Made by a program: the position numbers and the translations under genes
IMG/VR virus record: IMGVR_UViG_2617270964_000016
Location: 1-37,320 of that record
Reading direction: 5' to 3' (one strand)
Length of the DNA stretch: 37,320 nucleotides
From: a virus
Lineage: Duplodnaviria; Heunggongvirae; Uroviricota; Caudoviricetes
The notes under the pieces: model-generated
Seen by the model: the letters and a program-made list of their open reading frames with translations, nothing else
What the model was told of the DNA's origin: nothing
The model's database searches: none
Shown here: piece by piece, positions 1 to 1,077 of the stretch
How the letters are laid out: the number at the start of each line of letters is the position of its first letter
Numbering within the stretch: position 1 is the stretch's first letter

Positions 1-474
1 ATGTACAGTCCGGTACAAATAGCCAATAAATTCATAACGTTGGGAAACCAACATCATAATCCTCTGACCCACATGCAACTGCAGAAGCTTACTTATATTG
101 CCCATGGTTACTATTTAGCATTAACAGGTAAGCCTTTGCTCAATGAATGTGTCTCCGCGTGGAAGTACGGTCCAGTTATTCCTGGAATGTACGATGCTTT
201 CAAAGACTATGGGAATAAACCTGTTACGAATGTAGCAGTAGCTCCTTTTGGTGGCATCGTTACTATGGATCCGCAAGCAGAGAGCATTATCGGGGCTGTT
301 TATAAGTTTTACGGCTCGAAAAATGGAATTGAGTTATCAACTCTAACTCATATGCCAGGTACGCCTTGGTCACAAGCTTATAATGGTATTGGCTCGTCAA
401 TCATCTCAAATGATGCGATCAAGGCTTATTATCATGATTTATTGAATAACCGACAGCAATGTCAGGGCCTCTGA
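1..474 (+). CDS. Panacea-domain (DUF4065, GepA/SocA/PanA-like) phage-associated protein, putative antitoxin
   Basis: ATG at window base 1. Protein carries the Panacea-like signature LQKLTYIAHGYYLALTGKPLL...AWKYGPVIPGMYDAFKDYG. Region is AT-rich compared with the phage backbone. Confidence 0.6.
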   Translation: MYSPVQIANKFITLGNQHHNPLTHMQLQKLTYIAHGYYLALTGKPLLNECVSAWKYGPVIPGMYDAFKDYGNKPVTNVAVAPFGGIVTMDPQAESIIGAVYKFYGSKNGIELSTLTHMPGTPWSQAYNGIGSSIISNDAIKAYYHDLLNNRQQCQGL

Positions 475-495
475 AAAGTAATATTCAGGGATGAC

Positions 496-1044
496 ATGTC
501 TCACAATTCAGATATTTATAAACTTATCGGAGCGGCCGCAGGTGTTGAAAATGGTCGCTCTGAAGCATCCTTAAACTCTACTGACAGTCAAGAACAGGTT
601 TTTGAATCTGCATTTGAGCCGTCTAATCATGAGAGCGACGATGATTCTTCTTCAGAAAATAAAGCTATTCTGGAGGCAGAAGAGTTTGGTTCTAATACTG
701 GTGCATTGCATGAGTTTATGCAGCAGAACAGAATGGACAGTCTTCAAGCTCAGCTTGATATGCTCAAATCACAAGTACGGGATAAGATAGCTGACGCAAC
801 TGGTAAAGAAATAGACAATGAGCTTCGGACAAAAATGGCCTCATTCACGGTTTGGTTTATGTCGTGTTGGTGCTTATTCGTTGTCGCAATGTTTACATCG
901 TTTCTTATTGCACATGAAGGAAAGCCTCCAGTTGAAGCGATCGTTGCATTACTAGGTACAAGTACAATTAGTATTGTTGGTTTGGTTGGTTTCGTTGTTA
1001 GTGGATTGTTCAAATCAAGAAAAGATAGTGATAAAGAAAAATAA
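496..1044 (+). CDS. Uncharacterised membrane protein: acidic N-terminal region plus C-terminal 2-TM hairpin; candidate toxin/effector partner of the Panacea protein
   Basis: ATG 496 with AGGGA Shine-Dalgarno at 485-489, 21 nt after the upstream stop. Ser/Asp/Glu-rich N-region, then two hydrophobic helices (FTVWFMSCWCLFVVAMFTSFLIA and IVALLGTSTISIVGLVGFVVSGLF) and a basic tail KSRKDSDKEK. Confidence 0.5.
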   Translation: MSHNSDIYKLIGAAAGVENGRSEASLNSTDSQEQVFESAFEPSNHESDDDSSSENKAILEAEEFGSNTGALHEFMQQNRMDSLQAQLDMLKSQVRDKIADATGKEIDNELRTKMASFTVWFMSCWCLFVVAMFTSFLIAHEGKPPVEAIVALLGTSTISIVGLVGFVVSGLFKSRKDSDKEK

Positions 1045-1062
1045 CCCGTACATATACGGGTT
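1043..1062. terminator. Hairpin between convergent genes (8-bp perfect stem AACCCGTA/TACGGGTT, 4-nt loop); T-tract on the minus-strand side
   Basis: Seen directly: aacccgta-cata-tacgggtt. On the minus strand the stem is followed by ATTTTTCTTTAT. Sits between the stop of the 496-1044 ORF and the stop of the 1078-1350 ORF. Confidence 0.5.
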
Positions 1063-1077
1063 ATCCATAGTTTTAGT

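Follow-up and report, generated by a model that had tools for sequence, protein, structure and literature searches.

What do the two small AT-rich genes at the very beginning of the viral record IMGVR_UViG_2617270964_000016 (Caudoviricetes) encode, and what may they do for the prophage that carries them? The window, that is, the whole stretch of DNA analysed here (37,320 nucleotides (nt), positions 1 to 37,320 of that record), begins at the ATG of ORF1 (panA), which is followed on the same strand by ORF2 (panT). The original prediction, made from the letters of the sequence and their translations, had taken the pair for a candidate toxin-antitoxin or abortive-infection module composed of a Panacea-domain antitoxin and a membrane-depolarising toxin. 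Very probably, panA-panT is the PanA-PanT(Esc. col.) toxin-antitoxin module, which a temperate phage integrating at dusA carries at one of its ends as accessory cargo. The pair is not new: it is already published, named, tested and annotated.

Relation to the published PanA-PanT(Esc. col.) pair

The product of ORF1 is identical in 157/157 residues to WP_000287252.1, which is annotated as a coding sequence in seven RefSeq genomes and is also the PanA of the Escherichia phage PhiR47_1. Among ten relatives checked, eight carry a PanA identical to ORF1, and two (STEC313 and Z1323CEC0019) differ from it by 4-6 substitutions. Under this accession the antitoxin of E. coli STEC O31 was validated as PanA(Esc. 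col.), and its partner PanT(Esc. col.) is WP_000019185.1, with the toxin target listed as 'Membrane' (Kurata et al. 2022, PNAS, Table 1; PMC8832971). The supplement of the same work lists the STEC O31 pair in the order antitoxin-then-toxin, with the genes 22 nt apart, the status 'TA' and the toxin placed in the cluster T3. In the GenBank entry PV340566.1 (PhiR47_1), the two genes are likewise labelled as 'PanA antitoxin' and 'PanT toxin'.

The published experiments concern this very antitoxin and a sister allele of the toxin (PMC8832971). Expression of PanT(Esc. col.) from the STEC O31 pair halts growth and the cognate PanA rescues it (Fig. 2B, Table 1), while in a 10 x 10 cross-test the efficient protection by PanAs was limited to their own cognate toxins. 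Induction of PanT(Esc. col.) stops transcription, translation and replication together, as do HokB or carbonyl cyanide m-chlorophenylhydrazone (CCCP), and the loss of the DiSC3(5) signal with the entry of SYTOX Green indicates strong depolarisation and permeabilisation of the inner membrane, which was read by Kurata et al. as the formation of large pores. The neutralisation by the tested PanAs was independent of ClpXP and Lon. Accordingly, the predicted combination of a Panacea antitoxin with a membrane-depolarising toxin agrees with a published pair that shares the exact sequence of ORF1.

ORF2 was compared with ten alleles, eight of which adjoin the exact antitoxin WP_000287252.1 and two its variants with 4-6 substitutions, and was found to be 92.9-99.5% identical to them, i.e., 1-13 of the 182 positions differ. 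It is 97.8% identical to the sister allele WP_000019186.1 and 98.9% identical to WP_000019187.1, and a 90% cluster of 109 sequences contains it as an exact member. Because of this identity to the sister alleles and the shared 90% cluster, ORF2 is treated here as an allele of PanT(Esc. col.).

The assignment of ORF1 to the Panacea (DUF4065) family, proposed earlier along with a profile search as its check, is borne out by the match to Pfam PF13274 (SocA_Panacea; E 5.9e-18, 66.3 bits against the curated cut-off of 25.7), in which residues 27-123 span the profile positions 1-112 of 113; ORF1 also matches phrog_1281 (E 6.6e-49). Neither ORF1 nor the profile of the ORF2 family found anything credible in sequence searches of the PDB (best E 0.2-0.3). 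Membership in the SocAB type VI system was rejected, with ORF1 scoring 97 bits against the 190-bit cut-off of the SocA equivalog NCBIfam NF047745, and with the unrelated membrane partner and the ClpXP independence also speaking against it. The first base of the window is the true panA start, since the N-terminus MY(S/N/R)P is conserved in all eight PanA partners of the distant ORF2 homologues considered below, and GGAGG precedes the panA ATG by 7 nt in a near-identical genome; a longer ORF1 of 162 amino acids (aa) from an upstream start (MRRVVM...) was ruled out by the same conserved MYxP start and the GGAGG preceding that ATG.

Architecture of PanT and the range of its homologues

ORF2 was described in the original prediction as having an acidic disordered N-terminus and a C-terminal two-helix membrane hairpin, and charge, hydropathy and a structural model all agree with this description. 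The net charge over residues 1-70 is -12 and the isoelectric point (pI) of the whole protein is 4.69; two hydrophobic segments, with the 19-residue window centres at 123-131 and 154-163 and Kyte-Doolittle values >2.1, correspond to the hairpin helices at ~114-138 and ~147-171. The AlphaFold2 model built with 24 homologues contains a short helix 4-14, a disordered stretch 17-53, a long helix 53-139 continuing into the first transmembrane helix (TM1), a loop 140-145 and a second helix 146-179.

The statement that ORF2 could be assigned to no known family did not stand, for it belongs to the toxin cluster T3 of Kurata et al. 2022 and matches phrog_13343 over its full length (E 3.8e-113). No family above cut-off was returned for it in Pfam or NCBIfam. 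The sub-threshold matches to DUF2207_C, 7tm_6, DUF2975 and exosortase Y were dismissed as compositional, being due to the hydrophobic helices.

In the alignment of the 24 homologues, length and sequence are variable over the N-terminal ~100 residues, which are nevertheless always acidic, whereas the stretch G..IDN.LR..MA..T..FM..WC.FV, running into TM1, and the motif ALLGTSTISIVGLVGFVVSGLFK, which makes up almost all of the second transmembrane helix (TM2), are invariant or nearly so. The strong conservation of TM2 together with its richness in small residues suggests, as judged from the alignment, tight helix packing that would fit an oligomeric pore. The PanT allele of E. coli ET120, WP_370602600.1 (185 aa; 601-1158 of its locus), carries a 3-residue duplication, GLV, inside TM2.

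A search of 5.8 billion proteins returned 67 clusters related to ORF2, all of them either of Enterobacterales, by the source names given, or metagenomic. Eight diverse homologues with 39-70% identity (from Enterobacter, Providencia, Pantoea, Serratia, E. coli and metagenomes) were opened for a comparison of their surroundings, including whether ORF2 homologues occur without a Panacea partner. Each of the eight lies 21-45 nt downstream of a PF13274 gene of 153-157 aa on the same strand, and the partner PanAs diverge in parallel with the toxins, their identity to ORF1 decreasing from 75% to 43%. The occurrence of ORF2 homologues without a Panacea partner, which would have refuted the original prediction, was thus seen in none of the eight. 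The phage contexts of these pairs are of at least four kinds.

This linkage also bears on the alternative that ORF2 is a lysis or holin-like protein, or a membrane exclusion protein, with ORF1 being an unrelated phage protein and the two forming no toxin-antitoxin pair. ORF2 is indeed a small phage protein with two transmembrane helices, pore formation does resemble the action of a holin, and the PHROGs label of both the ORF1 and the ORF2 families is 'unknown function'. However, the window has a separate lysis module, and in a homologous prophage the lysis genes, annotated as a lambda-family holin, an endolysin and an Rz1-like protein, lie ~15 kb away; Pfam and PHROGs gave no holin family for ORF2, the Panacea gene is linked in eight of eight distant homologues, and the cognate PanA neutralises the toxin in the published assay (PMC8832971). 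This alternative is therefore highly improbable as a whole, and the lysis or holin role of ORF2 is effectively excluded by the lack of a holin family, its place outside the lysis cassette and the published neutralisation.

Gene layout, transcription signals and prophage setting

The coordinates of the features are collected in Table 1. The predicted gap of 21 nt between two co-directional reading frames agrees with them, and the predicted ribosome-binding site of ORF2 is present, though weak; the spacer is 21-22 nt in the close relatives as well. The claim of convergence with the early-left genes holds too, both of the adjacent genes lying on the minus strand.

Table 1. Features of the panA-panT end of the window, with the promoter and the neighbouring genes located in related loci (L numbers designate loci other than the window)
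Feature	Position	Strand	Remarks
ORF1 / panA	1-474	+	157 aa; standalone Panacea-domain antitoxin; pI 8.5; without membrane segment
Spacer panA-panT	475-495	+	21 nt; weak Shine-Dalgarno AGGGA at 487-491 for panT
ORF2 / panT	496-1044	+	182 aa; membrane toxin (assigned as PanT allele); C-terminal two-helix membrane hairpin
Hairpin	1041-1064	terminator-like on both strands	10-bp stem, 4-nt loop; between convergent panT and excisionase
PrtN-type excisionase	1078-1377	-	convergent with panA-panT
Rv2179c-like 3'-5' exonuclease	1387-1962	-	convergent with panA-panT
TTGACA-16-TATAAT, relatives	L002 5816-5843; L001 123-150; L003 and L004 1316-1343; L005 1820-1847		
Neighbours of distant PanAT cassettes	L022 4051-5962; L024 3964-5724; L020 3853-4551; L016 3866-6495		

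The pair was expected to be more AT-rich than the phage backbone, and the guanine-plus-cytosine (GC) content is 0.405 in 1-1065 versus 0.516 from 1378 to the end of the window, which places this stretch within the lowest 2.3% of the 1065-bp windows. The AT-richness runs past the cassette, the excisionase gene also having a low GC content of 0.407. Further AT-rich patches with GC of ~0.39-0.42 are found at 35100-36600, near the tail-fibre and tail-fibre-assembly genes, and at 16700-17900, near the lysis region.

Five independent relatives have a consensus sigma-70 promoter, TTGACA-16-TATAAT (12/12), ~160 nt upstream of panA; it is conserved exactly across these relatives with their different backbones and lies inside the phage arm. 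At the other side of the cassette, the hairpin predicted to end it was located as a 10-bp stem overlapping the ORF2 stop codon, with a folding energy of -12.7 kcal/mol (z = -3.1; 2/200 shuffles fold as well).

From the published experiments and these features the following mechanism is proposed. The genes panA and panT would be co-transcribed, antitoxin first, the likely promoter being the consensus site upstream of panA, and the transcript would probably end at the hairpin. PanT would enter the inner membrane via its C-terminal two-helix hairpin, probably oligomerise via the invariant small-residue-rich TM2 and form large pores, and these pores would collapse the membrane potential, leading to the shutdown of transcription, translation and replication. 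The soluble PanA would hold PanT inactive, most likely by the direct binding of the cytoplasmic N-terminal part of the toxin. Since the published pull-downs cover five other pairs, we infer the direct binding here, in the manner of a type II toxin-antitoxin system, from the independence of ClpXP and Lon and from the mutagenesis of the Blautia choladocola PanT D11, which supports a standalone Panacea contacting the N-terminal region of the toxin and the helix before its transmembrane region (PMC10440598).

Several points weigh against the identification of the pair and the mechanism attached to it. The pull-down complexes were reported for five other PanAT pairs, the E. coli pair not being among them, and the toxicity of PanT was assayed under arabinose over-expression and not at native levels (PMC8832971). 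For the tested toxin, WP_000019185.1, the identity to ORF2 is only bounded, at ~93% or more via the sister alleles, as that toxin was found neither among the 11 annotated loci, nor among the cluster members, nor in the supplements of the paper, where only sister alleles were met. The AlphaFold2 model of ORF2 is of moderate confidence only (mean predicted local distance difference test score, pLDDT, of 61; predicted template-modelling score, pTM, of 0.29), the consensus promoter is outside the window and was seen in the relatives only, and the T-run after the hairpin is poor on the plus strand.

The 1.1-kb cassette was detected by megablast in 79 of 5,426 complete E. coli genomes at 95-99.9% identity, always as a single chromosomal copy and with both genes present in 79/79; it also occurs in three deposited phages, PhiR47_1 among them. 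At the left boundary in E. coli 19-5, a displaced 5' fragment of dusA is followed, after ~300 bp, by panA, panT and the leftward excisionase and early genes, and the tyrosine integrase is located ~37 kb from the cassette, at the opposite end, adjoining the intact dusA. The gene order of PhiR47_1 is the same, with the integrase at the other end from the cassette, and in the other genomes for which the flanks were fetched the left junction likewise runs from a dusA fragment or the zur region through panA and panT to the excisionase. The window itself contains no integrase.

The cassette had been placed at the integrase-proximal edge of the prophage, and this has to be corrected: both in E. coli 19-5 and in PhiR47_1 the integrase stands at the far end, beside the intact dusA, so that in the lysogen the cassette is excisionase-proximal and integrase-distal; only in the excised circle, across attP, would the two come close together. 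The STEC O31 PanAT is flagged as 'NotPhage' in a column of supplementary file 2 of the paper (PMC8832971). In every complete genome with inspected flanks, the cassette is at the end of a dusA-integrated prophage.

The cassette with the excisionase module is joined to differing backbones. The window and the 19-5 prophage have a myovirus-like backbone with a tail sheath and a Mu-like baseplate, and PhiR47_1 is a lambda-like siphovirus with Lom and Stf; the two other phages with the cassette come from Shiga-toxin-producing E. coli hosts, one of them being named for Stx2k.

One conceivable role of the pair is that of an addiction or stabilisation module, in which the loss of the prophage would entail the loss of labile PanA, and the remaining PanT would kill the cell, so that curing is penalised. 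Prophage addiction is an equally conventional alternative to the defence role considered in the next section, post-segregational killing being the classical function of toxin-antitoxin systems on mobile elements (background in PMC8832971). The pair is a bona fide toxin-antitoxin pair, is always single-copy and linked to the end of the prophage in the 79 genomes of E. coli with the cassette, and directly adjoins the excision machinery. However, this reading presupposes a PanA that is less stable than PanT and subject to proteolytic turnover, and ClpXP and Lon are dispensable for neutralisation. Moreover, killing after excision would hurt the phage's own lytic growth unless the circular genome keeps panAT expressed, and the many copies in the P2 hotspot described below fit a cargo role equally well. 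On balance, the addiction role is considered rather unlikely.

The rest of the window was compared with the homologous 19-5 prophage. At 36439-37320 on the minus strand, a 293-aa rve-family transposase (HTH_21, rve and rve_3) is encoded, on whose start codon the window ends and which occupies the place of the invertase, DinI and integrase region of the 19-5 prophage; this position suggests the insertion of an insertion sequence (IS) or a replacement near the tail-fibre end. The segments 1982-4962, 15669-16446 and 20450-24015 gave no megablast match to the 19-5 prophage, to which the window is elsewhere 96-99% identical, and the prophage is thus a mosaic. The first of these segments encodes DUF551 and Ead/Ea22-like proteins. 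An ORF of 136 aa at 3939-4349 on the minus strand has a signal-peptide-like N-terminus and no family match.

Possible defence role and relation to other systems

The surroundings of the distant homologues introduce another role, also compatible with the toxin-antitoxin mechanism, i.e., that of an anti-phage system which the prophage encodes and which works through abortive infection or superinfection exclusion. Of the eight distant homologues, six are situated between a P2-type replication gene (PF05840) and a portal gene (PF04860), and this gpA-portal position in P2 is a defence hotspot (Rousset et al. 2022, PMC9122126), with 'DUF4065 + hypothetical' arrangements included in the supplementary table of that work. 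The neighbours of the distant PanATs at this position (Table 1) comprise a CBASS-like DncV nucleotidyltransferase with a Cap15 effector, a 586-aa reverse transcriptase of the RVT_1 family and a DUF4145 gene, and the Providencia copy follows an antiterminator gene and has type I restriction-modification genes downstream. The GC content of the distant cassettes is steady at 0.40-0.44 while that of the flanks varies within 0.39-0.54, as mobile cargo would show, and the cassette has its own consensus promoter.

By abortive infection, an invading phage would remove, titrate or alter PanA, whose Panacea domain would act as the sensor, whereupon the pores of PanT would kill or depolarise the cell before the phage cycle ends. 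The proposal of Panacea as a sensor is available in the literature, and a different membrane-toxin system, RosmerTA, has been shown to defend (Ernits et al. 2023). On the other side, neither PanA nor PanT is recognised by PADLOC (in the scan of PADLOC-DB v2 the ORF1 match was at chance level, E 0.02, and ORF2 gave none), the literature search found no phage-challenge or phage-defence test of this PanA-PanT pair, and hotspots carry non-defence cargo too, so that the association is not a proof; the copy studied here is, besides, outside the P2 hotspot, beside attL and the excisionase of the dusA phage. The anti-phage role is accordingly a tentative one, plausible on its circumstantial support and in agreement with the 'Panacea as sensor' proposal. 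With similar reserve, it is possible that a standalone Panacea senses the infecting phage and frees PanT, which would explain the location of the pairs in a hotspot beside CBASS-like, reverse transcriptase and restriction-modification genes.

Whatever its role, the pair assigned here as PanA-PanT(Esc. col.) may be compared with several known systems. With the STEC O31 pair it shares the identical antitoxin, the gene order, the spacer of 21-22 nt and a toxin of the same length with a charged N-terminus and a C-terminal transmembrane region, and it may differ from it by a few residues of the toxin allele; the locus also differs in its setting, flagged 'NotPhage' there versus the dusA-prophage end here and in the relatives inspected. 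The Bartonella apis pair PanA-PanT(Bar. api.) (cluster T12) and the B. choladocola PanT D11:PanA resemble it in their standalone Panacea antitoxin and in toxins with a charged N-terminal region, C-terminal transmembrane helices and a depolarising effect, with pore formation shown for the Bar. api. PanT. However, these toxins are too dissimilar to cluster with T3, and were not returned in the ORF2 search of the 5.8 billion proteins; their homology is only suspected.

The antitoxin SocA of the Caulobacter crescentus SocA-SocB system has a Panacea/DUF4065 domain, as does ORF1, but it is a ClpXP adaptor for the degradation of SocB, whereas PanA needs neither ClpXP nor Lon, and the toxin partner is unrelated to ORF2. 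HokB (type I), which served as a comparator in Kurata et al. 2022, and RmrT of RosmerTA are similar to PanT in depolarisation and global metabolic shutdown, RmrT D5 also forming pores, although neither is related to PanT in sequence. Hok is a small peptide under antisense RNA control, and RmrT has an antitoxin of the ImmA/HTH type and, unlike this pair, has been shown to have anti-phage activity.

The context added here appears to be absent from the table of the original paper: the pair is placed at the ends of dusA phages with several backbones, including Stx2 phages, it is preceded by a consensus promoter of its own, and its wider family recurs in a recognised phage-defence hotspot. Thus, the pair, which has already been cloned, is a convenient candidate for studying the trigger of a standalone Panacea antitoxin, and for asking whether PanATs are phage-defence or prophage-maintenance devices. 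If the defence reading were true, a membrane-toxin PanAT pair would for the first time have a demonstrated biological role, and the 'Panacea as sensor' proposal would be tested directly.

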